64,000 nt of DNA from IMG/VR virus record IMGVR_UViG_3300021255_002737; one strand, 5' to 3'. Positions 10,261 to 51,939 of this stretch are shown piece after piece (the first letter of the stretch is position 1; each line of letters begins with the position of its first letter). The notes under the pieces are model-generated. The model was not told the DNA's origin, ran no database searches, and saw only the letters and a list, made by a program, of their open reading frames with translations. A program made the position numbers and the translations under genes. Origin of the DNA: a virus.

Positions 10261-10305
10261 TGTCTACTTCCTTTCATTGTATATTCCATGAGATACATCG
10301 GAATC

Positions 10306-10779: not shown

Positions 10780-10788
10780 CCCTCTTTA

Positions 10789-10838
10789 TTTACCCCTCTA
10801 TATATAATGTCTTTTTTGGGGCATATTGTTCGGTCAAA
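10789..10838 (-). promoter_or_regulatory. conserved P motif, copy 1 (divergent)
   Basis: ttacccctctatatataatgtc...ttgttcgg is shared with 32357-32405 and 35437-35485. On the minus strand it reads GAAC-N15-AGAC. Confidence 0.45.
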
Positions 10839-11030
10839 ATCAAAAGTTTAATCAAAGTTTTACTTAGCGTTCTAAAACATGTTCTATTTTTGCCATATTT
10901 AATGCGCCTATATGCCTTTTCTATGTGTTTTCTCAGCATATTTTGTGCAATACCAATGGACATTTATTTCAAGATACCATAGAAATATGCACAGAAGGTT
11001 ATGTCTCCTATGCATATTTGCTATAGTATC

Positions 11031-15938: not shown

Positions 15939-16200
15939 CAATTTGTTACTCATAAAAAATAAGCCATAGCTTATCATTACGGGTACGGTCATTTCTGCCG
16001 TACTCTCACGTTTTATTTCATGACTATATCGTGAGTTCGGACTATACATTCATCCCTCGACTTTACGTTAGGGAGGCTATTTGTAGTCTCTACGGTTCCC
16101 TATATAGGTTTTACCACGGTCTTGTCCTGTCATTAGGAGTTTAACCGTTATTAAAGCATACTAATAATATATTTCTATATTATGCGGCAAGTTTAGGTCT
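15939..16200 (-). ncRNA. group I self-splicing intron, 262 nt, no ORF
   Basis: P/Q/R/S elements are present in order. P1 has a U.G wobble at the 5' splice site; there is a 6-bp P10, an omega-G, and in-frame exon ligation. Details are in the findings. Confidence 0.8.
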
Positions 16201-18363
16201 ACCGCCACTCATTTGAATCCAGAGGTCTTTCAGGTTTTTGTTTGTCCCTTGGGCAGCAACAGCAACATCCATTAAGACAGCCTGTGCAGAGCGAACTTTG
16301 GTGACACCATTGACAACCTCTGTGGTTGCAATGCCGAGCTTATTGAGTTCCTTTACAGCCTTATCGCTATTGAACGATGCAAGCATTGTCTTGAGCATAT
16401 TACCAATTTCCGAACCACTCAATGCCGTTGCACGAGTACCTTGAGCAATGAGTGCATTAAGGAACTCGAAGGAGATTCCTGCCTGTTTAGCGACCGAACC
16501 AGAGCGTTCTACGCCAGCTGCAAGGTCTTGAGCAGAGACACCTGCATTGTGAGATAACTTGGTATATACATCGACAATCTTATTGGAATATGCCAATGCT
16601 TCTGCACTGTTCTTTGCAACAAGTCCGTACTGGAACATAGCTGCTTCTACGGCCTTTGTGGACTCTGCCATAGAGAAGTTATCGGCAACAGCCAGTTTTG
16701 CTGATTGAGAAACCAATGTATTGACCGTTGCTTGGTCTTTGTACATACGTCCCCAAAGTCTTGCAGATTCCATAACATCCTTTACAGACTCACCGTATGC
16801 GCTTGCCGTGTTAATGAGTGCTCGTTGCTCCTCTTGGTATTTCTCAATGGCTTCAGACGATTTACCTTCAAGCTGCGGCATGACCGTTGCCAAGTTATGC
16901 ATTTCCTCATCGAGTTTAACAAGAGAATTGAATGTTTCCGTTGGAACTGCAAAAGCCGCACCAAGCAATGAACCTGCGGTAATCCAATACAGATGACTAC
17001 GCAATTTCTGTTCAAACGACGCAAACTTTTTTGAAGGTTCAGTGTTGTTCACGTCTTTCTGGAAAGCCTCATACTCTTTCCGTACAGCTGCAAGGCTCGC
17101 TTTAACGTTATCCAGTGCGGCCTTATTTGCAGCAGTAGGATCGCTTTTCCAGAGGGCATAGACTCTCTGTTGAACATCTTCAAGTCTACGAAGTTCCCTT
17201 GTATACGATTGGATACCCTCTGCCCATTTACCAGTTGGATCAACTGGCTGTACAGAAGGTGTAGTTGGTGCAGGATTCTTTGTTGTGTTCATACTTCTCT
17301 GATAGGCTTCTTGTTCTGCCCTTACCTTTGCAATGGTAGTAGCAAGTTTATCAAGGTTTTGCCTTGCTTCCTGTGAGCCATCGTGTCTCCAGACGATATA
17401 CATCTGCTCCTGCAATGCCATCAACCGTGATAATTCCTGGGAATACGTCCTGAGTCCAGTTGACCATGCTTCAAGGTTCTTCTGCATAACAGCCTTGTTT
17501 TGTGCTTCGGAATTGTTGAATGAGCTGAATGGAGACGTGAATGTCTTTGCTCCGCCGATTTTCTGATATTCAGCAAGGAGTTGATTGAACTGTTTCATTG
17601 ATAACTCAAAGTCTGCTCTCTTGACCTGCTGTCCACGTTCCATAGCAAGAGTCTGTCTATCAATGATCCTTTCGATTTGTGTCTCAAGTTCTGCACGACG
17701 TTTTAACTCATCAATAGCAGCCTGAGTACTCCACTTATATGTCGAGTAGTTCTCACTATTGTAAACATTGTCACGAGCAATACCATATTCTCTGAGCTTT
17801 GTAATGACCTCATCCAACGCATTTCTGCGGTTATACCATGTAGATTCAGGAATGAGCTTATTGTTACTCTGGGCAATCGAAAGAGTGCGTGTTAACTGCT
17901 CGTACTTCTTGAGTAATTTATCAATAGCTTCATTGTCTTTAATAGCAGCTTCCTGCATCTTCGTCATGTCCTGAACAAGGTTATTGAAAGAGCTTGCCTT
18001 GATATTTTTCAGGGTATCTTCCAGAGTCTTTTCAAGGGAACGTAAAGACTGCTCTGTCTGCTCTACACCATTAACTTTAATGGATGCGCCCTTGTTCAGC
18101 AACTCAATGCCACGCTTAACCTCACGCAAATCCTCACTGATCGTGTGAAGGTTTGATTTGAAGTTATCATTAACACCAATATTTACATTGGAATTATTCA
18201 GTTTATCAACGAAATTCTTTGCACTTTCGAGGGATTTCTTGACACCCTCAATTTTATCCGTGCCATTGGCAATGATATTGATTTCATATACCAACTGTTG
18301 TTTGTCTGCCATTTTATCCCTCCAATTTGACATAAAAAAATAAGGGATACCATGTTTTACCAC
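16201..18363 (-). CDS. tape measure protein, exon 1 (721 aa)
   Basis: TP901-type TMP core (ATVMPQLEG...ASAYGESVKDVMESARLWGRMY). The last 6 codons and stop of the ORF-track ORF lie in the intron. Confidence 0.85.
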
Positions 18364-23727: not shown

Positions 23728-24651
23728 TCACTTACCGTAACGAACCTTGGTAATCTCACGAAGCTTCTCAGCGAGAGACATGTCAGAAGCATTGATCTTC
23801 TCAATCTTTTCTTCCTTTGTCTCCTCTTTGTTTGCTTCAAACGGATTCGGTGCAATCTTCTGCGTCTCAGGAGCAGGAACTTCCTTAGAAGCCTCAACCG
23901 TATCCTTTGCCTTTTCTACATCTGCCTTAATCTCCTCAATGGATGCCTTGATAGACTCCTCAACTTCACCCTTAACATTGTCAACAGATGCCTTGATTTC
24001 TTCAATCTTCTTCTCATAGTCTTTCAGTTTCTCGTCAAGACCTGCCATAATGCTATCGATGATTTCTTTCTTTTCCTGTTCATTCATCTTCTTATCACTC
24101 CTATTCTTTTTCTCCATGCTTGCTGCAAGGGTTTCAATAAATGTATCACTAAATGCTGCACAGTTCTTCCAAAGGATTGCACATCCTGCGCCCTGGAACT
24201 CATCCATGAAAATCGTAGTGTCATCTTCATGTGTATTCGTCGGATACCACTCAGCACTAAAACCAAGCGAATCTGCACCATTTACAATCATGAATGCTTC
24301 TTCTGGGAACTTGTCCTTCCAAATGACCATTTCTGCCATCAGGTTGTCATCTTTTGCTTCAACACTACGGATATAACCAATGTTTGTCTCGCCATGTCCC
24401 GTAAATAAATCAGTGCCATCTGCAAAGAAACCTTCTGGATACGTACAATTCAACGGCATACCAACAAACGAATCCGCGCATTTCTTAATAGATTCCGACG
24501 TAAACACTACGAGCTTCCCATCTGAACCGCACGGCGCACCCGTCGATGCCTTATCAATTTTTGCAATGCATCCTTTAATAACCATCTTACCGAGTTCCGA
24601 GGACATTGTGATGTTTGTCATGGAACTCCTCATCAATTCTTTCTTGTTCAA
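23728..24651 (-). CDS. prohead protease-scaffold fusion
   Basis: N-terminus resembles the HK97-type protease (VGMPLN...GHGETNIGYI...DDNLMAEM). C-terminal acidic coiled coil (EEIKASVDNVKGEVEESIKASIEEIKADVEKAK). Confidence 0.55.
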   Translation of the reverse strand: MNKKELMRSSMTNITMSSELGKMVIKGCIAKIDKASTGAPCGSDGKLVVFTSESIKKCADSFVGMPLNCTYPEGFFADGTDLFTGHGETNIGYIRSVEAKDDNLMAEMVIWKDKFPEEAFMIVNGADSLGFSAEWYPTNTHEDDTTIFMDEFQGAGCAILWKNCAAFSDTFIETLAASMEKKNRSDKKMNEQEKKEIIDSIMAGLDEKLKDYEKKIEEIKASVDNVKGEVEESIKASIEEIKADVEKAKDTVEASKEVPAPETQKIAPNPFEANKEETKEEKIEKINASDMSLAEKLREITKVRYGK

Positions 24652-25970
24652 CCACTATCACCGTCCTTATCTGAACCAGTATCATCCTTTGTATTATCCT
24701 TCAAATCGCCAACGCCATTGAAGCCGCCGCCATTTGCCAAGCCAAGGTCAACATTGATATTCGCTGTCTTTTCAACGTGCGTCATATTGGCGTACTTAGA
24801 AGTGCTTTCCTCATATCCAGAGAGAGCGCGGAACTCATTCTCTGTAATAAGATCAGCCTTGTATTCATTGACAAGACGTGTACTCTTTGCTGTCTTTTGG
24901 TTCTCGCTATCCTCATGGATAAAACGGAAACGCAATATGCCACCAAGTCCCATCTTTGCAATGACATAGTTATTATACAAATCTTCAAGAAGATAAGCGT
25001 ATGGTTTAATCGCACCTTCGGTCATGGAATTATCACGATCATCTTCTGTGCTTCTATCGTTCTGAATCGTGATACCAAGTTCTTCTGGTGGAATACTGAA
25101 TGACATAGCAATAATCTTCGTGAGTCTGTCAATCCAGTCAATACCAAGGTTATCCTTGTTGATACTACGAATCTGACGAGAGTCAATCTCTGTGCTGCCA
25201 ACAATCGGGATATGTCCAGTTCCTTCAATCTCATTGTTCATGTAGTCACGGAACTTATCGATTTCCTCTGGCTTTGCATTGCGAAGTCCAATGAGGAACG
25301 ATGAAGTTGTATTTGTTGCAATGTCATTGGCTCTTGCACACGCTTCAATATAGTCACTGATATATTTGTATGCATATCGCACAGGAGAACAGCCATAGTG
25401 CGTGTCTGTGAAGTTCTGTCGTGTTCCGTAGAAGATATTGTCTGCCGTGAACTTCTTTACGCCATCTCCCTGACTCTGTACATAGCGGAATCCATGCGGA
25501 TTTGTGTAATCCCAAGGCTCAAGCAGCTTGATCGTTCCTGCGTCAACAGGATACAGATATACTGGATGATTCCCATCAGATGACTTGACAGATTCAACGA
25601 CCATCGCATCTAATACCAGTGCATCATCCATGATTCTCTTTGTAAAACTGCGCCGACTATCAATGATATTCGGATGTTCAATCACATTCTGAATCACGGC
25701 AATCTCTTTGGTGTATTTCCTACGTCCAGGAGCAATGACATCAATCGTGTACGGCATAGATGACACGGCATCGCTGATGATATTCATGGCTTTCCGTACA
25801 ACAGGTTCACGAGAAAGATTACGAAGTCTACGCTTATCAGGAGGTGGAAGCACCATTTTCCTTGTCTGCTTCCCGTTCGGGATATTCATGCCATAACGGT
25901 CAGTCCAAAGAAGTTTCATGGCAGGAATCTTGGATGCTAAGAATTTCTGTAGTTTATTCGTTAGTTTCAC
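24648..25970 (-). CDS. portal protein
   Basis: 440 aa between terL and the protease; overlaps terL. Confidence 0.75.
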   Translation of the reverse strand: MKLTNKLQKFLASKIPAMKLLWTDRYGMNIPNGKQTRKMVLPPPDKRRLRNLSREPVVRKAMNIISDAVSSMPYTIDVIAPGRRKYTKEIAVIQNVIEHPNIIDSRRSFTKRIMDDALVLDAMVVESVKSSDGNHPVYLYPVDAGTIKLLEPWDYTNPHGFRYVQSQGDGVKKFTADNIFYGTRQNFTDTHYGCSPVRYAYKYISDYIEACARANDIATNTTSSFLIGLRNAKPEEIDKFRDYMNNEIEGTGHIPIVGSTEIDSRQIRSINKDNLGIDWIDRLTKIIAMSFSIPPEELGITIQNDRSTEDDRDNSMTEGAIKPYAYLLEDLYNNYVIAKMGLGGILRFRFIHEDSENQKTAKSTRLVNEYKADLITENEFRALSGYEESTSKYANMTHVEKTANINVDLGLANGGGFNGVGDLKDNTKDDTGSDKDGDSG

Positions 25971-27609
25971 CCCCTAACTTCTGTAAAGTTTCACCTAGTT
26001 GTTTCATAGTAAATCTTGAACCATTATTATGCGTTACATTGCCTCCAAAGCTGCCAAACGAGAATTTAGCAACAGATGACTCAAGCATAGGCTGTAGTGC
26101 CATATGTAATGCGTCAGGGCAATCATCGTGTGTTCTAGGATACATACGAAGCTGATATAGTAATAACGTTTGGTCTTTCTTGAATTTGATATGACCTTGA
26201 CGAATATGCGGTGAAAGACTTTCGATTCTCGTTGCTTTCCTGTCTTTACCCATGTGCATAACATCAATCCATTCAAGGTAAATACCAGAGTCTATCAGGT
26301 CTTTCTGCAATGTCGTTGAGAAGAACGCCTGGAACTGGTTGGTTTCACATACGATCTTCGGACGATACTTATAGTATTCAGCAATGATGTTCTTTGCATC
26401 CTCTATGAGTTTATCGCCGCTTCTCTTTTTCGCGTCACATTCAAGGACATAGAAGTAATTGTCCATGCCACGAGCAAGTACAAGGATAACAGAGTAATCC
26501 GCACTGCGTTTCGTACTGATAGCAGGGTCTAATGCAATGTTGATTTCCTTGATGTCAGGCGGTTTTTCATAGAAGTTATTCTCTAGCCATTCTGTTTTGA
26601 AAATACGAAGGTTTTCGGTCATTGGGTCGTTCTGATATTCGCTTGCAAACGACTCCTCGGATTCCAGACGTTTTTCCATGAGATACAAGTATTGGTCTTT
26701 TCGTTGGTCAGGCCATAGTACCTTTGTGTCTTTCAGCATTTCTTCCTTATGGTCATAGTAGAATTGCTTTGCGTCTCGATAAGAGTTATCTCCACGAGAC
26801 AGGTCTGTCATAATGCTTTCCCATGTTGCCCAAAGCTCACTTGGCGAAAACTCAATGACTGCCTGGAATCTCTTGCGCTCCCACGATGCAAACCGTGCTT
26901 CTGTCAATAAACGCCACAGAACAGAATTATAACTGAGCACTGTTCCGATGAAAATCGCATCACCATCAACGGAAAGCATTGGAATAACATCTGCTGTCAA
27001 CCAGTGCTCTAATGCATCAACCTGAGTTGGACTATCAACTTCCTCTTGAGATTCCATATCATCAAGCAGTGCTAAATCAGGCCTTGTTCCGCCGAATTGA
27101 AGTCCGCGTAACTGTGCATTGGCACCTTTACAGATGATATAGACACCAGTACGAAGAAGTAACTCTTGTGAGTTCCACAGAGAGTCATTCTTAATCATAC
27201 CGAAGTCACGTTTAATCAATGGGTTAAATTCAATCGCATCACGGATATTCAAGATGAACTGTTTGGCAACAATGGCTGTCGCAGAGATGATGACAATGAA
27301 TTTCTTGTAGCCATACAATGCACACCAAAGGACAAACGCAAAGGAAGTCAAGGTTGACTTTGCATGTCCACGAGGAGATGAAACGCAGACCTTGTTCTGT
27401 TCATCTCGATGGTTGAAGATAATGTCTTCGTATTTATGGATGAGCCATTTATGAAAGGCTTCACTCCACGGGGAGCTAAAGTAATCACTCAGGTAATATT
27501 CACAGAAGAACTGGAAGTCATGTGCTGCTCTATCCTTGGGCGACTCTTTTTCCCCTTTGCGTCTAAGGGATTCGCCAAAGATTTCCTTCATGATGTCATT
27601 CTTAGGCAA
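25954..27609 (-). CDS. terL: terminase large subunit
   Basis: 551 aa. Walker A-like SSPRGHAKST, Walker B-like LALLDDME, C-terminal nuclease part. Confidence 0.8.
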   Translation of the reverse strand: MPKNDIMKEIFGESLRRKGEKESPKDRAAHDFQFFCEYYLSDYFSSPWSEAFHKWLIHKYEDIIFNHRDEQNKVCVSSPRGHAKSTLTSFAFVLWCALYGYKKFIVIISATAIVAKQFILNIRDAIEFNPLIKRDFGMIKNDSLWNSQELLLRTGVYIICKGANAQLRGLQFGGTRPDLALLDDMESQEEVDSPTQVDALEHWLTADVIPMLSVDGDAIFIGTVLSYNSVLWRLLTEARFASWERKRFQAVIEFSPSELWATWESIMTDLSRGDNSYRDAKQFYYDHKEEMLKDTKVLWPDQRKDQYLYLMEKRLESEESFASEYQNDPMTENLRIFKTEWLENNFYEKPPDIKEINIALDPAISTKRSADYSVILVLARGMDNYFYVLECDAKKRSGDKLIEDAKNIIAEYYKYRPKIVCETNQFQAFFSTTLQKDLIDSGIYLEWIDVMHMGKDRKATRIESLSPHIRQGHIKFKKDQTLLLYQLRMYPRTHDDCPDALHMALQPMLESSVAKFSFGSFGGNVTHNNGSRFTMKQLGETLQKLGGETNE

Positions 27610-27625: not shown

Positions 27626-28537
27626 TTATAACTTATACTTATTAATATGTCTTTTGATTGCAGAGTATCTTGTATCTGTATAGAAATCCTGTGCCCTGTA
27701 CCATTCTTCCCAGTCATGCCGTAGTTTGCTATGATTACAATCAGAGCAGCTAGGGACGATATTTTGAATCCTATCGACAAGCTCTGGGTGTTCTTTACTA
27801 AGAATCGTTTGAGGAATGAGATGTTCTGGAAGCAACGGCTTTTCCTTGCCACAATATGCACATTTTCCATGAAATTCCTTGACGATCTTATTCCACTCTA
27901 CGGTGTTGCTGTCGAATCCACCCAAGTGAACCCAGGAACCTCTTTCGCTCCTAACAATGGTATGTGACTGAACACCAAGGATAAACTCCTTGATTTTCTT
28001 CATTGGGATGTTCTGTAAAATCCAATCACGGACTGTAATGTTGATTCGACTGCTGTATGGAATGGCGACGCCAATCCAATTGCCAATGGAATCATAGAAT
28101 CCTCTCGGTGTATCGTCACCAGTCACGTCCTTGTAGATTGACTTGAGATTATCAAGCTGATACCTTGGATTTACCCAAGGACGAATCACACCGGCTTCAT
28201 TGAGATCATGACGAAGTGCCGTGAACTCCTTATCGATACAGGTAATGGATTTTGCTATGTCGTAGCGGTGAAGAACACGTAGGCATTCATTGGACTTATT
28301 GCGTATACTTGTCATCATCAGGACAAATCCATCACGAGAGACAAGATATGAGGTTCGTTTTTTACCTTGTGTATCCTTATAGCAAGACTCAATCGAGTCC
28401 ATTGTGTATTTACGTACTTTTTCAAGGATGTCTTTATGACGAAGATGTAAATCCCATGCTAATACACGGCTATCCATGTAGATGTTGCCATGAACGATTA
28501 CCGTGTCTTGTACTGCATAATTTCCTTCTTCGCCCAT
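27626..28537 (-). CDS. HNH endonuclease with Rha-like N-terminal domain
   Basis: CAYCG...EHLIPQ...CSDCNHSK HNH motif. N-terminus VLAWDLHLRHKDILEKVRKY. Adjacent to the terminase genes. Confidence 0.7.
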   Translation of the reverse strand: MGEEGNYAVQDTVIVHGNIYMDSRVLAWDLHLRHKDILEKVRKYTMDSIESCYKDTQGKKRTSYLVSRDGFVLMMTSIRNKSNECLRVLHRYDIAKSITCIDKEFTALRHDLNEAGVIRPWVNPRYQLDNLKSIYKDVTGDDTPRGFYDSIGNWIGVAIPYSSRINITVRDWILQNIPMKKIKEFILGVQSHTIVRSERGSWVHLGGFDSNTVEWNKIVKEFHGKCAYCGKEKPLLPEHLIPQTILSKEHPELVDRIQNIVPSCSDCNHSKLRHDWEEWYRAQDFYTDTRYSAIKRHINKYKL

Positions 28538-29382: not shown

Positions 29383-29679
29383 TCAAGTCTTTTTGATTTT
29401 CCTATTGTAGTTTTTCATTCTGTCAGATGCTTTTTTTCGTTCATCCTCGGTATACTTCCTACTTACTCGTTTAGTTCGGAACGACAATAGCTTCTTATCA
29501 AACTCATAGTACGCCGCAATAGGTTTTCCGTTGACGTAGTCCTGCTTAACTCTCTTGTGAATCTTGTCCAATTTTGTCATCACCGTAGAGTCTGTTGTGT
29601 AGACATGGCATACCGTGCCATTACGGTCAAACTGAATTACCGTCTCTTGTTCGTCCGTTGGTACAAAATAGTCATCCAT
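29383..29679 (-). CDS. hypothetical protein
   Basis: 98 aa with a basic C-terminus. Confidence 0.5.
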   Translation of the reverse strand: MDDYFVPTDEQETVIQFDRNGTVCHVYTTDSTVMTKLDKIHKRVKQDYVNGKPIAAYYEFDKKLLSFRTKRVSRKYTEDERKKASDRMKNYNRKIKKT

Positions 29680-29707
29680 ATATTGATACCTTTCAATGTG
29701 TTATTCT

Positions 29708-29803
29708 AAAAAATGGAAAAGCCTGAGTGTCGTGAATCGCGGCTATTCAGCCAAGTCCAGTGTACTCTATTATAGGGCATCTGGAGTTCACGGTGACTCA
29801 AGC
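29708..29803 (-). terminator. long imperfect hairpin plus U-tract closing the tRNA cluster
   Basis: On the minus strand, GCTTGAG (29803-29797) pairs with CTCAGGC (29727-29721) and is followed by TTTTCCATTTTTT. Confidence 0.35.
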
Positions 29804-29814
29804 AAAAAATCAAA

Positions 29815-29889
29815 TGGAGCTACCAGCAGGAATTGCACCCGCGTCCATGGTGTACAAGGCCATTGTTCTGCTTATTGAACTATGGTAGC
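29815..29889 (-). tRNA. tRNA-Thr(UGU)-like, CCA encoded
   Basis: 75 nt. 7-bp acceptor GCTACCA/TGGTAGC; D stem GTTC/GAAC; anticodon loop CTTGTAC; T stem GCGGG/CCTGC. Atypical T loop (TGCAATT) and no GG in the D loop. Confidence 0.55.
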
Positions 29890-29896
29890 ATGATGA

Positions 29897-30033
29897 AACC
29901 GTAGGATGGATTTGAACCACCATAAAGGAACAAGATGCGCTAGAAACACCTCGGTATGTACTTTCCTTGCTCTAGCCGTTGTGAAGGTCTTTACGTCATG
30001 GCATAATACCTTAACACATTGAGCTACTACGGT
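29897..30033 (-). tRNA. 137-nt tRNA-like gene with insertions; internal hairpin has a CUA anticodon-type loop
   Basis: 7-bp acceptor ACCGTAG/CTACGGT; TAGCTCAATG...GGCTAGAGC D-arm halves; canonical T arm GGTGG-TTCAAAT-CCATC; hairpin GGTGT-TTCTAGC-GCATC. Confidence 0.4.
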
Positions 30034-30097
30034 ATGAAAACAGGAGCCGCCAACAAACGACTCCAGAGACTCGATTCCGCATTGTCGCGGACGAGCT

Positions 30098-30136
30098 AAA
30101 AAGACATGAAAAAGGAGTCGGCATTTTACCGACCCC
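30098..30136 (-). terminator. intrinsic terminator after the antirepressor gene
   Basis: Minus strand reads GGGGTCGGTAAAATGCCGACTCC followed by TTTTTCATGTCTTTTT. Confidence 0.6.
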
Positions 30137-30147
30137 ATGTGTGTCAA

Positions 30148-30837
30148 TCAAAGTTCCAGTTCAGGATAAGCGACTTCCCATGCCTTAACATGGTATGTAT
30201 TGACTTCTCCATAGTTTGCATCGAAGATTTTCTTTACACCAATCCCAATGTCAGCCGATGCCTGTTTGAGTTTGCGCCACGAAATGCTTTTCCATGAAAT
30301 ATCATTGAGTTTTGCAACGCGCTTAATGGAATACCATTCTTTGCTGTAGTCCAGCTCTGCCTGTAAGCGTTCTTTCTCCTGCTTTTCTTTCTTGTACTCC
30401 GTGAGTAATTTGATGCAGGAATCAGGATCATTAAGCATCATGTCAATGACACTCTGCTTTGCATACAGGCCATGTTTACGAATGTCAGGAAGAACTTCAT
30501 GTGTAACCCAATGTTTGAACTTCTTGGCTGTAGGGAGTTTACTGCCAAAAATCAGGGCATATACACCGGACTCACTGATAAACCAATTATCCTGACGCCC
30601 AAGTTTATTCTGCATTTCCTTTACCGAACTAAAGAGTTTTAGCATTTCGCTACCACGCTCCGACCTAAGGAATTTATCCTCGCAATCAACATGGTCATGA
30701 ACAGCTTCATTTGGGTTCTTGTATCCGAGAATATCCGCTACATCTTTCCCAACGAACCAAGGCTCATTGTTGATAATAACAGTGCGAACCTTGCCGAACT
30801 CTGGATTGTTAAAAACCTGTAATACATTGTTTTCCAT
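30148..30837 (-). CDS. Bro-N family antirepressor
   Basis: FGKVRTVIINNEPWFVGKDVADILGY and AKKFKHWVTHEVLPDIRKHG. Confidence 0.75.
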   Translation of the reverse strand: MENNVLQVFNNPEFGKVRTVIINNEPWFVGKDVADILGYKNPNEAVHDHVDCEDKFLRSERGSEMLKLFSSVKEMQNKLGRQDNWFISESGVYALIFGSKLPTAKKFKHWVTHEVLPDIRKHGLYAKQSVIDMMLNDPDSCIKLLTEYKKEKQEKERLQAELDYSKEWYSIKRVAKLNDISWKSISWRKLKQASADIGIGVKKIFDANYGEVNTYHVKAWEVAYPELEL

Positions 30838-31613
30838 ATAACACCATACCTTTCAAAGAAACATTCCTTATTCTCGACAACAATCACAAGACGTTAACCT
30901 TGCTTTTGCTATAAAATAACGGCGAGCGACAGGGAAGGAATGGTAAAACCTGTCAATGGGGAGCTACCCCGACTCGCCGGTATAAACAAATAAACATAAA
31001 ACTACACTGGAAAATAAGGTTTCCCTTTATGTCCTCATGTTCTGTGTTATTGTGTTACGAGCAATACAAGTCTGAGCAACGACTAGCAACTTTCGCGCTT
31101 CTTGCACTAGGAGCTAACTCCCCTATGACTCGACAGGACTATGACCTGCATCTTTCATTCATCATTCAGAAATGATATGCTTTTTCTAACCAATATTATG
31201 CAGATTGAACTACTCTACCTATCTACTTCCGTTATAGCTGCGGTTAAACAGCGTCACTGCAATACCTGTTTGATTGGGTTTATACCTATGGTTAGACCAT
31301 GTGAACCCAGACACATGATTTCATAGGCGACCGTATTGGTGCTTGCACAGGCCGGAAGGGACGGACACTACACTCGACATGATTCACACATATCCCAACA
31401 AGATAAGCTCTTTGAACTCTCATCGGCATAATCGCTTACGTCAACTAATGAATGGTACAGGCTATCGTCTATATCATCCATTTCTCTTAACAGGGATATT
31501 CTCAGCGGACTGACAATCCTCTGCACTGAGTTATCTTCCAGTACAGTTTTATGTCTATTTATAATGGTGGGGATGGTTTAATTGGACACATCCCCATAAA
31601 AATAAAATATTAC
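30838..31613. ncRNA. candidate large structured non-coding RNA (776 nt)
   Basis: No credible ORF; many nested GC-rich helices; one gene away from the tRNA cluster. Confidence 0.35.
30881..30909 (-). repeat. 29-nt box upstream of an antirepressor gene (copy a)
   Basis: caatcacaagacgttaaccttgcttttgc matches 32229-32257 at 28 of 29 positions. Confidence 0.7.
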
Positions 31614-32198
31614 TCAATGACGTTCCAGAAGATTTACAATATATTCTTTGCCTTTGTACGTGACTTCCGTATAGCTCCTGTCGTTATTCTTTGGATGAAC
31701 AAGGAACCATCCTTTGTCAATGTACCGTTGATATGGCATGTACTTATTCTCAGGCGTGCGATAGATATACCCATGATTAACTAACCATCGTGACAGCTTG
31801 TTCTGTCCCATGCTGAAACGATTCCATACAATGTCTGCAAGGTCATTCATGGAATACGTTACATCCTTATCCTCGACATCATTGTTTTCAATCATGTCAC
31901 GATCTTGGATACGCCCAATGTGTTTCAGGATGGCGTCCATGAATCGTCTACCGTTTCCTCTAGGGAAGTATGGTGCAACAAGTTTAAACGCATCTACAAT
32001 TGTAATGTAAGGTTCGTTTTCAATGCGCAACGGAATGATTCCCGTCTTTTCAAGCATGACTTCACTACGACCAAGACGATGGTCAATCCAGTCTGCAACA
32101 TCCCTTGCATTCACATAGATATAACCAATCGTTCCATAGAGTGTTACCGTGACACCGTAGGATTCTACATGGGCAACCACGCCAAAATTCTCATTCAT
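31614..32198 (-). CDS. KilAC/ANT-type antirepressor-like protein
   Basis: C-terminus YSMNDLADIV...MGQNKLSRWLVNHGYIYR...YQRYIDKGWF. Start moved to the ATG at 32198 (RBS AAAGGAAA). Confidence 0.6.
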   Translation of the reverse strand: MNENFGVVAHVESYGVTVTLYGTIGYIYVNARDVADWIDHRLGRSEVMLEKTGIIPLRIENEPYITIVDAFKLVAPYFPRGNGRRFMDAILKHIGRIQDRDMIENNDVEDKDVTYSMNDLADIVWNRFSMGQNKLSRWLVNHGYIYRTPENKYMPYQRYIDKGWFLVHPKNNDRSYTEVTYKGKEYIVNLLERH

Positions 32199-32228
32199 TT
32201 CAATTTCCTTTCTGTGTGTCCAATGTTG

Positions 32229-32257
32229 CAATCACAAGACGTTAACCTTGCTCTTGC
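32229..32257 (-). repeat. 29-nt box upstream of an antirepressor gene (copy b)
   Basis: caatcacaagacgttaaccttgctcttgc. Confidence 0.7.
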
Positions 32258-32304
32258 CGTTAGGTGGTGGGAGAAAGTAACGCCCACCTATGCCCCTCTT
32301 TGGA

Positions 32305-32342
32305 CATAATAAAAGGACACGGCAAGGGGGCAAACCGTGTCC
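32305..32342 (-). terminator. leader terminator just downstream of P motif copy 2
   Basis: Minus strand reads GGACACGG-tttgcccccttg-CCGTGTCC followed by TTTTATTATG. Confidence 0.55.
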
Positions 32343-32356
32343 AGAGTGTAATTAAA

Positions 32357-32405
32357 TTACCCCTCTATATATAATGTCGAAAAATGGGGGTAATTGTTCG
32401 GTAAA
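32357..32405 (-). promoter_or_regulatory. conserved P motif, copy 2 (candidate late promoter)
   Basis: Minus strand has GAAC (32399-32396), then N16, then CGAC (32379-32376). An ACCCC/GGGGT inverted repeat flanks the -10 region. Confidence 0.5.
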
Positions 32406-32419
32406 ACGCAAAATTTTTT

Positions 32420-32659
32420 TTATTTTTTCTTGATTTTTTTATCAAGAGCGGATTTTAATAGCTTTGAACGCCTAGATGCTATCATTGCACGTTGAATAAG
32501 CTCGTCTTTAGAGTCAGAATCGGGCATATTTTCTATCATTGTAGCTGCTATGTCATACGGTACGCGCATCACAAGGCACTCGCTGCCACAATCTGCAAAA
32601 CAACTAATGTTGTCATACATAGAGCTTTTCACATCCTGTATGTTCTTGAATCGTATCAA
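32420..32659 (-). CDS. hypothetical protein
   Basis: 79 aa with a basic C-terminus. The true start may be the internal Met, because of the 47-nt overlap. Confidence 0.45.
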   Translation of the reverse strand: MIRFKNIQDVKSSMYDNISCFADCGSECLVMRVPYDIAATMIENMPDSDSKDELIQRAMIASRRSKLLKSALDKKIKKK

Positions 32660-33566
32660 GCAATTCCTTCATTCCCAGCTTGTCCATGCAATACTTGTAC
32701 AACATAGGATGTGTTTTAGACAATCGGACAAACCTACGTCTATCACCCTTTTCTAAGTGGCAACCAATCGGGCAAAACACACATCCCGTCCTGTCCTCTC
32801 CTGTTGTGGCATATTTCCCGTTCTTATCCTTTACAATGTCGCCATAAACACTAGGAATCTTCACATGACGAGTAACAATGTATTCCAATACATCTTGTTC
32901 TGTCCAAAAGCTCATGGGCTTAGACGATGGGTCTTTAGCGTCAAACGCATTGCAGCCATGTCGAATCCATGCGTTATGCCTAAGTCTAGATTCACACGCC
33001 ATAGTTGCTAACATTGGCTTTGTCCCTGTTTGTTTCATGTATTTATGACCGGGCTTCTTTTTCATAACAGTGCAACAATATGGACTGATTTTAATTGGCG
33101 AATCTACCAGCCATGCCCATTTCATCTTATTCTTACACCAAGGGTTGCTGTGTCCCTCTTTATCGAGCCCATGAAATACATTGATTGCCCATTGGGAACC
33201 CTTGCGCCCATAGTAAATAGTCATTGCAACCTCTTTTGAAGGATATACCCATCCTTCGTCTTGAATTACCTGAAGAAAAGATTTCTCTGGACGAATGATA
33301 ACAATATTGTCAAATGACTTCACATGATCTTTAACCTCGGGGAACTCCAAACCAGTGTCTACGAATACCCCTTTGATGTCAGGAAACATCTCGCGCGCAA
33401 TATCCATCAGTACAGAGGAGTCCTTGCCACCGCTGAATGACACGTAGACATTGCCATTGTAATGATTGTACCATTCAGTGATTCTCAGCTTTGTCAGTGT
33501 AATTTTGTCATCAAGGGGAAGTGCCTGTAATTCCCTTAGCTCATCACTTGAGTGTTTCATCGTCAT
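32613..33566 (-). CDS. PAPS reductase/PP-loop ATPase family protein
   Basis: YVSFSGGKDSSVLMDI PP-loop; C-terminal CVFCPIGC. Confidence 0.75.
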   Translation of the reverse strand: MTMKHSSDELRELQALPLDDKITLTKLRITEWYNHYNGNVYVSFSGGKDSSVLMDIAREMFPDIKGVFVDTGLEFPEVKDHVKSFDNIVIIRPEKSFLQVIQDEGWVYPSKEVAMTIYYGRKGSQWAINVFHGLDKEGHSNPWCKNKMKWAWLVDSPIKISPYCCTVMKKKPGHKYMKQTGTKPMLATMACESRLRHNAWIRHGCNAFDAKDPSSKPMSFWTEQDVLEYIVTRHVKIPSVYGDIVKDKNGKYATTGEDRTGCVFCPIGCHLEKGDRRRFVRLSKTHPMLYKYCMDKLGMKELLDTIQEHTGCEKLYV

Positions 33567-33916: not shown

Positions 33917-34573
33917 TTATGGTTCATATTCTTCTGCAATCCTCGACAACCTTCCACGGAAGTTCCGTGTCAGCTCAACCTTACGTCCAATGTGTTCAAC
34001 CATGTAATTGCCATAGTCGACAAAGCAATGTTCCTTGTCGCCTGGATTGTCACTCTGACGGGAATCACCTAATAACACACATTTAGAATCATCATGAATG
34101 CGCGTCAGGACAAGACGCAGGTCACTCACGCCCATATTCTGTCCTTCGTCGATGATAACAAGGCAATCCATGAGGTTTACGCCGCGAAGGTTATTGTCTG
34201 TAATAAGCATGACCTGTTCTGTATTGACGAGTGCCTGAATATCTCTCTGTGAAAAGCCAAGGACTTCCAGTGCATCGTATGCAGCATAATATAACTGCGC
34301 TGTTTTCTGCTCAAGGTCTCCCGGTAAATATCCGTTGGCATAGCTGCGTTTTGATGGTTTGATGATATAGATGATTTTACTGATAACTCCATTGGCGAGC
34401 ATATCAACCCCCGCAGCAAATGCAACGGTTGTTTTACCAGAACCAGCCTTGGCTTCCACAAACGTAAATGGAACCTCAAGGATGCTATCGAACATCACAT
34501 GTTGTTCATTGGACATCCTTTTGTAAAACCTGTCACGATCCTTGTTGAACAGCGGAATTTCTTTGTCATTCAT
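33917..34573 (-). CDS. phoH: PhoH-like ATPase
   Basis: Walker A AKAGSGKTT; Walker B VIIDEGQN; LGDSRQSD motif. Confidence 0.8.
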   Translation of the reverse strand: MNDKEIPLFNKDRDRFYKRMSNEQHVMFDSILEVPFTFVEAKAGSGKTTVAFAAGVDMLANGVISKIIYIIKPSKRSYANGYLPGDLEQKTAQLYYAAYDALEVLGFSQRDIQALVNTEQVMLITDNNLRGVNLMDCLVIIDEGQNMGVSDLRLVLTRIHDDSKCVLLGDSRQSDNPGDKEHCFVDYGNYMVEHIGRKVELTRNFRGRLSRIAEEYEP

Positions 34574-35485: not shown

Positions 35486-36100
35486 TCTCAAAAAAAATAC
35501 AAAAAATTTTTTCAAACCTCTACAATGCCGTGTATGCTCATTTAGGTATCACCTGTATCACCATGCTCAAACCGTTGATTTACAAGGCTTTACGGCGATT
35601 CTACGGTGTTATGGCAATGGATTCCCTTGTTTCACCCTCGATAAACCCTTGTGGCGTAAGGGTTTGCGGTGTATTTCACTGAAATCATGGGATTTCCGCA
35701 GAGATGCGTAAAATTTCCACTGAGGTGCGCGGTTTGTGCTGTGACTATGCGGGCGATTTTACTGAGAACGTTTCCCATATTGGTACACGCAAAAGCACCC
35801 ACCATGTCCGCGTCTAGTGTACAATTCAATGTGATTCTCGCGAATCCCTTATATATAGCCATTCTTAACATCATATTACTATATGTTATCACATGTATAT
35901 TCTGATGACAACATAATATGATAACGTATCTCATTGAATGACATTGATATACATTGTAATTCCGATGACTACAACAATGCGCTGCTGTTCGAGTTAATGG
36001 CTGTCCGTTGATAACATATGAATAACCATTCATATATCAGTGGTATAGAACGCGCGTCAATCAGAATGCATTCTTATACATTCAATGTATATCTATACAA

Positions 36101-36235
36101 TCTCATTGCAATCTCATTGCCCTACACTAGATATTCATTGTAATCCAGTGCCTTACATTGGAATTTCATTGCCCTGCACTAGAGTCTTATTGTAAACTAA
36201 TTACTTACATTGGAATTTCATTGGCTGCCATTGAT
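36101..36235. repeat. iteron-like array: about three 52-bp direct repeats, each with three (C/T)ATTG cores
   Basis: Cores start at 36104, 36115, 36136, 36156, 36167, 36188, 36208, 36219 and 36229. Spacings are 11, 21, 20, 11, 21, 20, 11 and 10 bp. Confidence 0.65.
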
Positions 36236-36286
36236 CCATTCCGCTGCATAAATCCATTTAATCAAATTGAATTTAGAAAAACAAAT

Positions 36287-36517
36287 TCATTGATCCACAT
36301 CGCGCTTGCGTCGGAAAACAATCTCATATCCTAGAATATCCAGGATATTGTCAATCTCATTAGCTCTTATACTACCTTCATTAATTTTTCGATTAAATGA
36401 CTGCTGATTGTACCTAGTGTTATATTGTCTGTTATATTCTTCTCCAAAAGATTTTAATGAATAACCATTATCTGTTATTAAGTGTTTTATTCTTGTACTT
36501 AACATTGTATTATACAT
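36287..36517 (-). CDS. XRE-family HTH regulator
   Basis: LSTRIKHLITDNGYSLKSFGEEY...; divergent from the plus-strand block. Confidence 0.6.
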   Translation of the reverse strand: MYNTMLSTRIKHLITDNGYSLKSFGEEYNRQYNTRYNQQSFNRKINEGSIRANEIDNILDILGYEIVFRRKRDVDQ

Positions 36518-36649
36518 CCCCTATTACATACTATACATGTATGTATTGTATACTTATTGATATGTTATGTGTCTATTCATACTGTACATCTGTTTTGAAG
36601 CCTTTTTGAAATACTGCGATATAAAGAGCATTTGCGAGATATTTGAAGT

Positions 36650-36716
36650 ATAACAACGATTTTCGTAGTAAATACAACATTTTACGATGTGCAGTACAAC
36701 GTTTTTTGTAGTATAC
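36650..36716. promoter_or_regulatory. three tandem operator-like repeats
   Basis: ACAACGATTTTCGTAGTA, ACAACATTTTACGATGTG and ACAACGTTTTTTGTAGTA, between divergent genes. Confidence 0.5.
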
Positions 36717-36806
36717 TTTAGTTAAAGATAAAGAGAGAGACAAAGAAGTAAGACAAACAAATAATATAATACTAACTCTATTATATCAAATTAGGAGTGA
36801 TTTGTC

Positions 36807-42690: not shown

Positions 42691-42702
42691 GGAGGTATAA
42701 CC

Positions 42703-42873
42703 ATGAAAGAGTTTAACACTTTCATCCATGAGTTTACAGAAGACGTAAAGAAGGAATACAGGGAATTAGCAAGGGGAACGCCATGCGATGACTTGTATGC
42801 ACTAGGGAAAATCCAGAGAATTGCCCTGGAACACGTTGCAAATCGGTACAGGACACGTAGAAAGGCAGGGTAA
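42703..42873 (+). CDS. small protein (56 aa)
   Basis: Below the ORF cutoff; strong RBS AAGGAGG. Confidence 0.5.
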   Translation: MKEFNTFIHEFTEDVKKEYRELARGTPCDDLYALGKIQRIALEHVANRYRTRRKAG

Positions 42874-42877
42874 TGAC

Positions 42878-43057
42878 ATGGAGAGAATCATTTTGGAAGC
42901 ACATTCCAGAAGGGAAATGTTAGAGGGAATTAAACGATTCTATATTGATGGTATCTGGGAAATTAGAGAGGATGGCACGGTATATAACGAGATTGGCGGC
43001 ACTGTTTCGCATTTTCATGTAGAGGTATGCAATGACGTTTGGAGGTTTGGCAAATGA
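42878..43057 (+). CDS. small protein (59 aa)
   Basis: The ATG at 42878 lies 4 nt after the previous stop. Confidence 0.45.
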   Translation: MERIILEAHSRREMLEGIKRFYIDGIWEIREDGTVYNEIGGTVSHFHVEVCNDVWRFGK

Positions 43058-43278
43058 AACATATATTGACATATAGAATTATTGGAGAACCTGAGTATGA
43101 TTCTAAAAGGCAAAGAAAATGGCGTTCAGAGGGTTATTGCCTTGAAACAGATCACAGGGTATGGGTGCTGTATAACCTTGGGGAACGTCCATTGATACGA
43201 ACAATGAAGGACAAGGTTATTAGGTCTGCAGCGGAAAGGAGATGGGAACACTATGGGAAGCACGAGTTTATGGCATGA
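43054..43278 (+). CDS. hypothetical protein
   Basis: ATG at 43054 (RBS GGAGG). Confidence 0.5.
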   Translation: MKHILTYRIIGEPEYDSKRQRKWRSEGYCLETDHRVWVLYNLGERPLIRTMKDKVIRSAAERRWEHYGKHEFMA

Positions 43279-49351: not shown

Positions 49352-49813
49352 TCATTCCTCCATATACCAATGGTTGTCCTTGTCTTTCTTCCAGATATGC
49401 TGATTGGATGAACCACGGAAAGGAATATCTGTCCCATGATATTTCTCAACGTATTTGCCATCAATCAGACAATCAATATCTTGAAGATCGTCTTTATCAA
49501 AGGATAGGAAGGAAAATCCAGTGTACATTGTCGTATGCAATCCATTTTGTTTTGCCCATCTTGCAATTTCTTTTACTTGCCACATTTGATATGCAGGGTC
49601 GCCGCCAGAAAATGTAACGCCATCAATAAATCCGATATAGGATTTGATTTGTTTCATAATCACATCTACTGGAATTTCATCGCCGTCGTTGAAATCCCAT
49701 GTGGATGGATTTTGACAGCCTTTACAGTGATGTTGACAGCCCTGAGTAAAAATGACATAGTTAATACCTTTTCCATCAAAAAGACTCGTAGGTCTTAATC
49801 CTGCAATTCTCAA
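49352..49813 (-). CDS. nrdG: anaerobic ribonucleotide reductase activating protein
   Basis: Radical SAM CQHHCKGCQN; adjacent to nrdD. Confidence 0.85.
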   Translation of the reverse strand: MRIAGLRPTSLFDGKGINYVIFTQGCQHHCKGCQNPSTWDFNDGDEIPVDVIMKQIKSYIGFIDGVTFSGGDPAYQMWQVKEIARWAKQNGLHTTMYTGFSFLSFDKDDLQDIDCLIDGKYVEKYHGTDIPFRGSSNQHIWKKDKDNHWYMEE

Positions 49814-51939
49814 AGAGCATCACCACCTGCATGAGAAATACGGTCACGGGACTCTGCAACTTTACCTGCATTGAAGTGATCCTCTGTAGAAAGGTATCCC
49901 GTAATGATTTTGGTCTCCTTGTAATTCGTACTGCCACACTTTGGGCATTTACCATCGGAAAAAGTACCCTGATAATGGCAGCCATTGCAGAAATCCATTA
50001 CCCAGTTCACGCCACCATATACGATGCCACTGTCGGCGATGTAATTCAGGAGCTTCAACAATCCCTCTTTGTTGTATTTCGGTGAACGTCCTACTTCAAT
50101 GTAGAAAATATCACCTGCATTGCAAAGGAGATGATATGGAGCTTCAATGTCAACTTTCTGCTTCATATCGACATGACACGAAACAGGAACATGATTGCCA
50201 TTAGTAAAGTACTCCTTGTCTGTCACTCCATTTACAATGCCAAATTCATTACGACATTTCTTGAGCAGCGTATAGCAAGCACTCTCGGCAGGACTAGCGA
50301 ACGTTGCGAAGTTCAAATGGTATTTTTCCGTGGCTGCATCTGTCTCGTGACGGATATAGCCAATAATTTTCAGGCCAAGTTCCTGAGCTTCCTTGCTTTC
50401 ACCATGGTGTTTTCCCGTAAGAGCAGTAAGGCACTCTGCAAGACCAAGGAATCCAACGGAAAGACTACCGTTCTTTACCATCTGCTCAACGGTATCATCG
50501 GGTTTGAGTCCTTCATGTCCCTGCCACCACTGTCCAACAAATGGAATGTCCTTAACCTTGAGATTCTTCACGACATCATAGCGTTCCAGAAGTTCGTTGA
50601 TTGCATCGGAAACGACTTCATGGAAATAGGACGTGAACTCATCCATGACATCCGTGCCGTTTTCCTTTGCTCTATGCTTTGCTTCCAGTGCGACATACGG
50701 TAAGGAAATCGTATTGAAGAACAGATTACCTCTTGCGTTTGTATCGGCACTGCCATTGACATTGCCACGGACAGCCGTGCGGCATCCCATCGTTCCAATG
50801 TTATCCAGTGACATTCCCTTGTATGCAGGAGAATCAGCAAAGACAAAACGCGGCTGGATACGCTTACCAATGCAATCCAGTGCTAAATCTGTGATGCCAA
50901 AATTGGGTTCGCCTGGCTTAGAATTGATACCCTTTTTGAATCTATAGCAAAGGTTCGGGAAAATCGGGTTCTCGCCATTGCCAAGACCTGCGATATATGC
51001 TTTGAAAAGGTTCTTAGAAATCATTCTTGCCCACTCGGATTCATCCGTACCGAAGTTTACAGAGCTAAATGTGACCTGTGCGCCACTACGGGAACGCATG
51101 GTATTCATGTTATACACAAAGGCTTCCATTGCCTGATAAACGGCTTTTTCCGTGTGCTGCAATGCAAGTTTCTCTGCTCTCTCGTGATTGACATAGCCGC
51201 CACTGACAACCCTCATGTCATCTTCAATGCGTTTCTTCTGCCATTCGTATTCCTTTTCGACATACGTCGCAAGGTCAGTGTCAAAACGAAGGAATCCCTG
51301 ACCGCCGAACATATCGTTCTGGGAACTCTGGAGGATGATACAAGACAAGGCAACTGCACTAGAAATGCGTTTCGGGGAACGGATACTGCCGACACCATTG
51401 TCAAATCCATGAGAAAGCATGTCGCCCAACGGATTAAAGAAGCAATTCCATGTCAGGCCATAGTATCCAAGATCGTGGATATACACAATGCCTTTCTTGT
51501 GATTCTCTGCGAACTTCGGTGTCATGCGAGAGAGGAAATACGGTTTAGATACAGACTCAGCAATGCCATACATCTTGGAAGCAGCAGAGTTCTGTGTATT
51601 GGCGTTGTCGTGGTTCATTTCTGCAACAAGAGTACCAACGTTTTTCATGAGGTTGCTCTTTGCCATGCGAACCTCATTGCGTTTCTGTCTGTAAAGGATA
51701 TATTCTTTAGCACATTTTTTATCGTGCTTCATCAAGGACTTCTCTACGCTGTCATGAATGGTATCAACAGACACATCCTTGTTAGCCGTACTGAATTTCT
51801 TGTCCATTTCCTCTGCGACTTTTGTAGCGAGCTGTTCATTGAACTTCCCGTAAACACTCATTGTTGTTTTCAGTACAGCATCGTGTACTTTCTTCGCCTT
51901 GAACTCCTCTACCCTTCCGTCGTGCTTGATTACTACCAT
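49810..51939 (-). CDS. nrdD: anaerobic ribonucleoside-triphosphate reductase
   Basis: N-terminal ATP-cone; C-terminal CNGC...CPKCGS zinc site and a glycyl-radical-like TKIITGYLS. Confidence 0.9.
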   Translation of the reverse strand: MVVIKHDGRVEEFKAKKVHDAVLKTTMSVYGKFNEQLATKVAEEMDKKFSTANKDVSVDTIHDSVEKSLMKHDKKCAKEYILYRQKRNEVRMAKSNLMKNVGTLVAEMNHDNANTQNSAASKMYGIAESVSKPYFLSRMTPKFAENHKKGIVYIHDLGYYGLTWNCFFNPLGDMLSHGFDNGVGSIRSPKRISSAVALSCIILQSSQNDMFGGQGFLRFDTDLATYVEKEYEWQKKRIEDDMRVVSGGYVNHERAEKLALQHTEKAVYQAMEAFVYNMNTMRSRSGAQVTFSSVNFGTDESEWARMISKNLFKAYIAGLGNGENPIFPNLCYRFKKGINSKPGEPNFGITDLALDCIGKRIQPRFVFADSPAYKGMSLDNIGTMGCRTAVRGNVNGSADTNARGNLFFNTISLPYVALEAKHRAKENGTDVMDEFTSYFHEVVSDAINELLERYDVVKNLKVKDIPFVGQWWQGHEGLKPDDTVEQMVKNGSLSVGFLGLAECLTALTGKHHGESKEAQELGLKIIGYIRHETDAATEKYHLNFATFASPAESACYTLLKKCRNEFGIVNGVTDKEYFTNGNHVPVSCHVDMKQKVDIEAPYHLLCNAGDIFYIEVGRSPKYNKEGLLKLLNYIADSGIVYGGVNWVMDFCNGCHYQGTFSDGKCPKCGSTNYKETKIITGYLSTEDHFNAGKVAESRDRISHAGGDAL

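Follow-up and report, generated by a model that had tools for sequence, protein, structure and literature searches.

In the window, the 64,000-nucleotide stretch of virus record IMGVR_UViG_3300021255_002737, positions 30838–31613 (776 nt) form the exact gap between two minus-strand genes, one encoding a Bro-N domain protein and the other a KilAC/ANT-domain protein. A preliminary description of this DNA had proposed a large ornate noncoding RNA of the ROOL/GOLLD class here, and the proposal was confirmed by a full-length match to the family called ROOL (for Rumen-Originating, Ornate, Large). Both flanking genes, taken there as antirepressor genes, encode antirepressor-like proteins, as judged by their Pfam domains and by matches to PHROG anti-repressor families. 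The window is a tailed-phage genome, and the phage genome, the adjoining tRNA genes and a host lineage in Bacillota (Negativicutes) all fit the proposed context.

The absence of a plausible open reading frame (ORF) in the gap also held: the longest ORF was 61 aa, compared with 64 ± 18 aa on average after shuffling, and the five longest gap ORFs had no Pfam match at E ≤ 0.1. In contrast, the gap was not richer in GC than its flanks, as had been claimed; its GC content was 0.410 (ROOL RNA, 0.419), compared with 0.416 and 0.417 in the flanking genes and 0.424 in the whole window. The complete gap sequence recurred at 100% identity in contigs of four metagenome samples (ENA, Logan, and JGI), which shows that it is not an assembly artefact.

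The ROOL match and the parts of the RNA

Rfam 15 was searched with the whole window, applying its gathering thresholds, and with positions 29500–32500 also permissively at E ≤ 1. The whole-window scan returned two matches, one tRNA and one ROOL (RF03087), and the permissive scan added only one weak second tRNA-like match. The ROOL match scored 214.8 bits (E = 3.4e-47), more than double the gathering score of 99.1, and covered model positions 1–574 of 574 without truncation. None of GOLLD, HEARO, OLE, and raiA was matched, either in the whole window at gathering thresholds or in 29500–32500 at E ≤ 1; the cmsearch test put forward in the preliminary description, which named these five models, was thus positive for ROOL only. 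The RNA is smaller than the 776 nt first proposed: it spans approximately 560–577 nt, or approximately 72% of the gap, on the minus strand, a strand having been left unstated in the preliminary description.

When the Rfam consensus structure was projected on this copy, 120 of the 153 scorable pairs were canonical, and 62 of these had changed on both sides. The minimum free energy (MFE) of the 558-nt core on the minus strand had a z-score of −3.57, with none of 100 dinucleotide shuffles as stable. The conserved blocks CAGUG.AGA, AGUAG, UUCUGAAUGAUG..UGAAAG, and GCUCAGAC, which correspond to the invariant columns of a nine-sequence alignment, were all present. The MAFFT alignment of distant ROOLs was too poor outside these blocks and was not used for pair counts. 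Every sequence and structural feature by which ROOL was judged was found in this copy, except for the GNRA loop and the J6/7–P7 region. These data make the identity as ROOL virtually certain, and the gap is, with high confidence, best explained by a minus-strand ROOL gene that can be extended by its closing helix to 30986–31562 (Table 1).

The closing helix, P1, comprises 32 continuous base pairs and runs 8 bp past the Rfam match on each side; it was also seen in the MFE structure and in the Rfam covariance-model alignment. Five helices had been quoted for the gap, and all five proved to be exact reverse complements at their positions. Three of them are ROOL elements (stems P2 and P8 and the pairing of loop L8 with the J6/8 strand), whereas the other two, at 30921–30978 and 31569–31595, lie outside the RNA. 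Their description as nested does not apply to all of them, since TGGGTT/AACCCA crosses CCTATG/CATAGG in the order A-B-A'-B', a pseudoknot topology. Nor was the region helix-dense by this kind of evidence, because perfect inverted repeats of 5–7 bp in the gap were within the range of shuffled sequences; at k = 6, there were 17 compared with 11.5 ± 4.5, and 11% of shuffles reached 17.

Table 1. Positions of the ROOL gene, its parts, and other features of the window (helices named in DNA letters were quoted in the preliminary description)
Feature	Position	Strand	Basis or remark
ROOL RNA gene (RF03087)	30997–31554	−	cmscan, full length
P1, 5' strand	31531–31562	−	Pairing scan and MFE of 30985–31563; inverted repeat in self-BLAST
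P1, 3' strand	30986–31017	−	Pairing scan
P2 hairpin (CTCAG/CTGAG)	31501–31530	−	Rfam alignment
Loop L2, UUGUCAG	31510–31516	−	
Reduced J6/7–P7 region, GCAAGCACCAAUACGGU	31330–31346	−	Rfam alignment
P8 hairpin (CCTATG/CATAGG)	31285–31327	−	Outer CCUAUG/CAUAGG, inner CAUGUG/CACAUG
Loop L8, UGGGUU	31304–31309	−	
J6/8 strand AACCCA (TGGGTT/AACCCA)	31275–31280	−	6-bp complement of L8
Hairpin GCUGU-UUAACC-GCAGC at the family's GNRA-hairpin position	31237–31252	−	Rfam alignment
Variable linker, ~32 nt	31173–31204	−	Rfam alignment
Conserved core block UUUCUGAAUGAUGAAUGAAAG	31152–31172	−	Invariant alignment columns
L18 loop UUGCUA, self-complementary GC centre	31084–31089	−	Identical to env-120
Probable tRNA-Gln remnant, UGGGGAUG + 13-nt loop + CAUCCCCA + CCA	31565–31596	−	Synteny and alignment
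Y-shaped (three-way) hairpin + GUUAUUUUAU	30911–30978	−	Folding z = −4.4; not part of ROOL
23-nt element GCAAGGTTAACGTCTTGTGATTG, copy 1	30881–30903	−	44 nt upstream of Bro-N ATG; small conserved hairpin
23-nt element, copy 2 (exact)	32229–32251	−	~31 nt upstream of ANT-gene ATG
tRNA-Thr(UGU), the only canonical tRNA of the window	29815–29889	−	ARAGORN; Rfam tRNA 57.2 bits
Aberrant tRNA-like gene, 137 nt	29897–30033	−	Rfam tRNA 35.8 bits (gathering 29); no ARAGORN call
Bro-N domain antirepressor-like gene, downstream of ROOL	30148–30837	−	Pfam PF02498 1.8e-29; phrog_130 7e-53
KilAC/ANT-domain antirepressor-like gene, upstream of ROOL	31614–32231	−	Pfam PF03374 9.5e-16; PHROG anti-repressor families; ATG at 32198, as called in contig L019
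Tape-measure protein	16180–18363		Pfam/PHROG scans
Portal	24648–25970		Pfam/PHROG scans
Large terminase (TerL)	25954–27609		Pfam/PHROG scans
PAPS reductase	32613–33566		Pfam/PHROG scans
PhoH	33917–34573		Pfam/PHROG scans
Anaerobic ribonucleotide reductase NrdD	49810–51939		Pfam/PHROG scans
Primase-helicase	55385–57412		Pfam/PHROG scans

Cage contacts and comparison with known ROOLs

Flat ROOL monomers self-assemble without protein into closed hollow cages that are stable down to approximately 12.5 nM: octamers, approximately 28 nm across, for env-120 and the Enterococcus faecalis ROOL, and a hexamer for the Ligilactobacillus salivarius ROOL (PMC12286853, PMC12990946). We compared the contacts of this copy with those of env-120, a cow-rumen ROOL with an octamer structure from cryo-electron microscopy (PDB ID: 9MDS; Kretsch et al., 2025, PMC12286853); 650 of its 659 nt were compared, and residues were mapped by motif rather than by number. 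Bridge B1, which pairs A38–C41 with G465–U468 in env-120 (PMC12286853), has an equivalent here in L2 UGUC and GAUG of the core block (31160–31163), with two Watson-Crick (C-G and U-A) and two wobble pairs (G·U and U·G); this copy has the GUCA variant of the L2 loop in common with contigs L010 and L013. Bridge B4 joins L8 and J6/8 of neighbouring chains in the octamer (G307–A310 with U332–C335; PMC12286853), and its equivalent here, UGGGUU with AACCCA, is longer, with 6 bp. This pairing covaried in eight other ROOLs (GGAGU/ACUCC, UGGUA/UACCA, UAGG/CCUA, and UGACA/UGUCA). Bridge B6, G565:C566' in env-120 (PMC12286853), is kept in the L18 loop, which corresponds to U563–A568 of env-120.

Both RNAs belong to the same Rfam family, share the overall helix plan, and are closed by P1. 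They also have in common the L8–J6/8 complementarity (GGUA/UACC in env-120), an identical L18 loop, and a very similar 3' domain (AAGAAGCG..AGUUGCUA..UUGCUCAGACUUGUAU), for which env-120 was the closest sequence. Both probably come from rumen-type communities, as judged from sample names only; for the window, the names "SHIW14" and "HighM" alone would point to a sheep rumen. Outside the 3' domain, overall similarity was low. The env-120 RNA is 659 nt long compared with 558–577 nt here, its linker of 51 nt, disordered inside the cage (PMC12286853), contrasts with one of 32 nt, and its core block reads GAUU rather than GAUG. Its 6-bp P7 forms the B3 daisy chain of the inner ring, whereas P7 is vestigial here, and its B2 hairpin carries a GNRA loop that this copy does not have.

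The E. faecalis ROOL forms an octamer or tetramer (PDB ID: 9J3T/9J3R) and the L. salivarius ROOL a hexamer (PDB ID: 9J6Y), with interfaces consisting of the loop-bulge pseudoknots L2–L13' and J11/9–L11' and an L15–L15'' kissing loop (PMC12990946). Sequence equivalents of these interfaces are kept in this copy, which belongs to the same family but lies in a phage genome, unlike those two, which are chromosomal or on a megaplasmid. The hexamer was attributed to an ultrashort apical stem (PMC12990946). Since the stem at the corresponding position is vestigial here too, the stoichiometry of this copy is not predictable. In one L. salivarius strain, ROOL abundance was comparable to that of 16S rRNA (PMC12286853). 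GOLLD is likewise a large ornate phage or prophage RNA that lies beside tRNA genes and forms RNA-only cages, although it has another sequence and fold.

By analogy with these structures, we consider it reasonably likely that this copy forms a cage. A chain of approximately 0.18 MDa would fold to a flat monomer, and eight or six copies would join in a protein-free hollow cage through L2 with GAUG (B1), L8 with J6/8 (B4), and self-pairing of L18 (B6).

The other comparison sequences were ROOLs from IMG/VR and metagenome contigs (L002, L003, L005, L007, L009, L010, L012, L013, and others), 10 of which had been retrieved from IMG/VR with the core-block motif; like this copy, they are full-length RF03087 members in viral contigs, with the core blocks and a covarying L8–J6/8 pairing. 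Close relatives of this ROOL were sought with the pattern GTTGCTAN{3,7}TGCTCAGACTTGTA in IMG/VR and with TTCTGAATGATGAATGAAAG in metagenome contigs, and both scans gave 0 matches. A general core pattern returned 60 metagenome loci, approximately half of them chance matches, and the true ROOLs among them were at most 65% identical to this copy. The sequence was also absent from the portion consulted of the gapped supplementary ROOL alignment of Kretsch et al. Judged by sequence, this is a divergent copy, because its identity to the sampled ROOLs is at most 65% and its score is the lowest of the nine full-length copies compared; it is a member of an already known family in the expected context and would not surprise a specialist.

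Two of the contigs had matches to further structured RNAs. In the viral contig L008 (IMGVR_UViG_3300032038_000015), positions 1–781 contain a ROOL that is truncated by the end of the contig, followed head to tail by a tRNA (438–514) and HEARO (546–781; 121 bits), and a RAGATH-18 RNA lies 5 kb beyond them (5599–5673), so that large structured RNAs are densely clustered in this contig. The tRNA-rich viral contig L005, which also carries a ROOL, had a borderline and probably marginal match to the small RNA "6A" on the minus strand (3430–3480; 41.8 bits, with the gathering score at 41.2).

The tRNA island and the slot in related phages

Five IMG/VR contigs encoded a TerL 90–98% identical to that of the window, and one relative resides as a prophage within the Mitsuokella multacida DSM 20544 chromosome (Selenomonadaceae, Negativicutes, Bacillota). 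None of them contained a ROOL in the 15–17 kb compared, and none was matched by the ROOL core pattern. The order in the relatives is ANT gene, tRNA-Gln, and Y-shaped hairpin, whereas in the window it is ANT gene, tRNA-Gln remnant, ROOL, and Y-shaped hairpin. The segment specific to the window coincided with the ROOL model to within approximately 10 nt at each end; the boundaries of this indel are good to approximately ±10 nt, and a global alignment that tolerated gaps very freely returned nothing but short, spurious blocks. Since the closest relatives carry tRNA-Gln instead of ROOL in this slot, ROOL appears as exchangeable cargo of the tRNA island. The slot is a hot spot for cargo, with a Bro-N gene in both L017 and the window.

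The helix GGGGATG/CATCCCC, quoted in the preliminary description, is the 8-bp stem of a hairpin that directly follows the ANT stop codon, where L015–L018 carry tRNA-Gln(UUG). The hairpin, 2–10 nt upstream of ROOL, is separated from the extended P1 by 2 nt, and its loop consists of D- and T-region fragments. In a MAFFT alignment, both of its ends aligned to the sister tRNA-Gln across a large internal gap; gap-tolerant local alignment to tRNA-Gln gave z = 3.0–4.2 against shuffles, and the folding z-score was −3.2. ARAGORN and Rfam (E ≤ 1) called no tRNA at 31565–31596, which has no complete cloverleaf with an anticodon arm. This hairpin is likely an internally deleted tRNA-Gln, a remnant rather than a gene, and its stem is probably the acceptor stem; apart from that stem, only the D- and T-region fragments and CCA could be aligned to the sister tRNA-Gln.

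The slot of L016 (identical to L023, the M. multacida DSM 20544 prophage) contains, at 4373–5238, a 5' fragment of one tRNA-Gln joined to another, complete tRNA-Gln, and an ORF for an HNH endonuclease (4540–5238) comes next. This arrangement suggests that cassettes have been exchanged repeatedly at the tRNA-Gln gene. Among other ROOL loci, 8 of 10 had a tRNA on the same strand 14–106 nt away, in line with the link between ROOL and tRNA islands reported in the literature (PMC12286853).

The "tRNA cluster" of the preliminary description was reduced by our analysis to one good tRNA-Thr, approximately 1.1 kb downstream of ROOL on the same strand, accompanied by an aberrant tRNA-like match and the tRNA remnant. 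The aberrant gene has good acceptor, D, and T arms, with a long irregular hairpin in place of the anticodon region; it is 84% identical to an 88-nt copy in L015, relative to which it has an insertion of approximately 40 nt in the D-loop. Similar genes occur in relatives (L015, 5204–5291 and 4943–5029; L018, 4947–5045). In L015 and L018, a second odd tRNA-like gene, to which ARAGORN gives a 2-nt "anticodon", occupies the ROOL slot.

Downstream of ROOL, the Y-shaped hairpin has GGCGAG/CTCGCC (30921–30978) of the preliminary description as its outer stem and GGGG/CCCC and CAGG/CCUG as its arms. It was 77–90% identical in the sister phages without ROOL (L015, 5034–5100; L016, 5487–5560; L017, 4852–4925; L018, 5049–5110), and it comes after the tRNA-like gene in L015 and L018 and after ROOL in the window. 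Four of its 31 consensus pairs showed compensatory changes, for example GGCGAG/CUCGCC to GGUGAG/CUCACC and GGGG/CCCC to GAGG/CCUC. It matched no Rfam family at E ≤ 1, and a simple terminator scan missed it owing to a loop rule of 3–8 nt. The hairpin is an independent element, probably a branched intrinsic terminator of the tRNA/ROOL unit.

The gap had been said to share no modules with other regions of the window (at 10.3 kb and 34.8 kb). This is true of the RNA itself, but the 23-nt element at 30881–30903, in the same gap, is repeated exactly at 32229–32251. No such match was expected by chance (0 matches), the repeat is kept in relatives, and a GC-rich hairpin precedes each copy. The element may be a shared leader or operator of both ant-like genes.

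Beyond the island, BLAST searches of GenBank phages gave no match with the 776-nt gap (distant mode) or with the surrounding 16 kb (megablast), and the TerL was at most 34% identical to those of GenBank phages. In an ORF at 27626–28537 (minus strand), the N-terminal region is Rha/antirepressor-like and the C-terminal part has an HNH endonuclease motif; placed between the putative small-terminase region and TerL, this ORF is a third ant-like gene within 5 kb. Other stretches of the window without an ORF of at least 90 aa (10261–11000, 36034–36806, and 42691–43252) had no Rfam match at gathering thresholds, and the first two equal the ROOL gap in length.

Alternative explanations, expression, and biological role

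Several findings weigh against the assignment of the gap to a ROOL gene. The score was the lowest of nine full-length ROOLs, the eight from IMG/VR reaching 263–363 bits, and the 27 distinct ROOL sequences compared had 58–65% identity or less, leaving no close relative for lineage-specific covariation. In the covariance-model alignment, 33 of the 153 consensus pairs were noncanonical; these cluster in two one-register slips, at the GUGU/ACAC repeats and at the P18 stem with its bulge, and the true number of canonical pairs is higher because the broken pairs reflect an alignment one register off. The GNRA tetraloop of B2, an A-minor contact of G62 with A366 in env-120 (PMC12286853), has no counterpart in this copy, which has a UUAACC or UUUAACC loop (6–7 nt). 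At this hairpin, a GNRA loop (GAAA, or GUAA in L053 and L072) is found in every one of the 26 comparison ROOLs; GAAA was flagged directly in 23, and L068, flagged as "none", was assigned GAAA from a flank near-identical to that of L003. An A-minor contact remains conceivable because two adjacent adenines persist in the UUAACC loop. The J6/7 AAUAG block (5 nt), present as AAUAG or AAUAC in 25 of the 26, is deleted, P7 has at most 3 bp, and B3 is thus vestigial; P7 is not always conserved among ROOLs (PMC12286853), so its reduction is no bar to membership. With the J6/7–P7 region so reduced, assembly, or at least stoichiometry, may differ from that of other ROOLs. Finally, a sigma-70 scan of the minus strand just upstream of ROOL found no promoter-like site.

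The low score, the lost loop and block, and the noncanonical pairs could also be read as signs of a decaying or inactive ROOL relic in a recombination hot spot, no longer assembling or functioning, and the truncated tRNA-Gln alongside indicates that the slot does collect debris. Yet this is a full-length copy whose 32-bp P1 is perfect, the B1, B4, and B6 complementarities are intact, B4 even exceeding that of env-120, 62 pairs have been kept by double changes with a folding z-score of −3.6, and four independent samples yielded one and the same sequence; we regard decay as improbable. The position of the gap between two ant-like genes would suit a cis-acting or antisense regulatory region of these genes (for instance as a long leader, 3' UTR, or sar-like antisense RNA), as would the conserved hairpin and 23-nt element in 30881–30978, the latter recurring upstream of the other ant gene. 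The sister phages, however, keep the genes, the hairpin, and the element without the 560-nt core, and this core matches ROOL, which is found in unrelated gene contexts, so that such a regulatory reading is contradicted for the core and is a very poor explanation of the region. Even less credible is a small protein gene: there are ORFs of 45–61 aa in the gap, but the longest is of the length expected from shuffling and none of those searched matched Pfam, most are antisense to the RNA, and the conservation pattern is that of RNA structure.

The ROOL gene is co-oriented with the flanking genes and tRNA-Thr. A promoter of its own was considered at TATAAA (31558–31563), which has no usable −35 element; this candidate was unsupported and rejected. 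ROOL might be transcribed within the ant/tRNA transcription unit, its 5' end being freed beside the tRNA-Gln remnant by tRNA-processing enzymes, and the Y-shaped hairpin and its U-rich tail (30911–30978) would end transcription. This scheme of co-transcription, trimming, and termination is plausible but tentative, and we place it somewhat short of an even chance. As for function, we would guess at a role in lytic growth linked to the tRNA island, for example as a cage or decoy against host factors that act on tRNAs; this role is favoured because ROOL is interchangeable with tRNA genes at the slot, although it is unlikely to be correct in this form. Similarly doubtful is a broader proposal, in which a reduced ROOL variant (no GNRA loop or J6/7 block, vestigial P7, short linker, and a strengthened 6-bp B4) would assemble with a novel stoichiometry or geometry, ROOL and tRNA-Gln would be interchangeable in one transcription unit, and tRNA-processing enzymes would set the RNA free at the acceptor-stem minihelix remnant abutting P1. 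If true, this would link the function of ROOL with the tRNA economy during infection, for example in countering host defences that target tRNAs.

ROOL is among the few natural RNAs known to build protein-free cages larger than the ribosome. The copy described here offers a natural test of what determines assembly and what determines stoichiometry, as three base-paired bridges are kept and two contacts are lost. Near-identical phages, including the prophage of the cultivable M. multacida DSM 20544, carry tRNA-Gln instead of ROOL, and this natural contrast of presence and absence provides a defined genetic background for adding back or deleting ROOL. The locus is also a concrete case, with direct evidence, of ROOL/tRNA exchange at one recombination hot spot, and the swap lends support to the view of ROOL as a functional part of phage tRNA islands.

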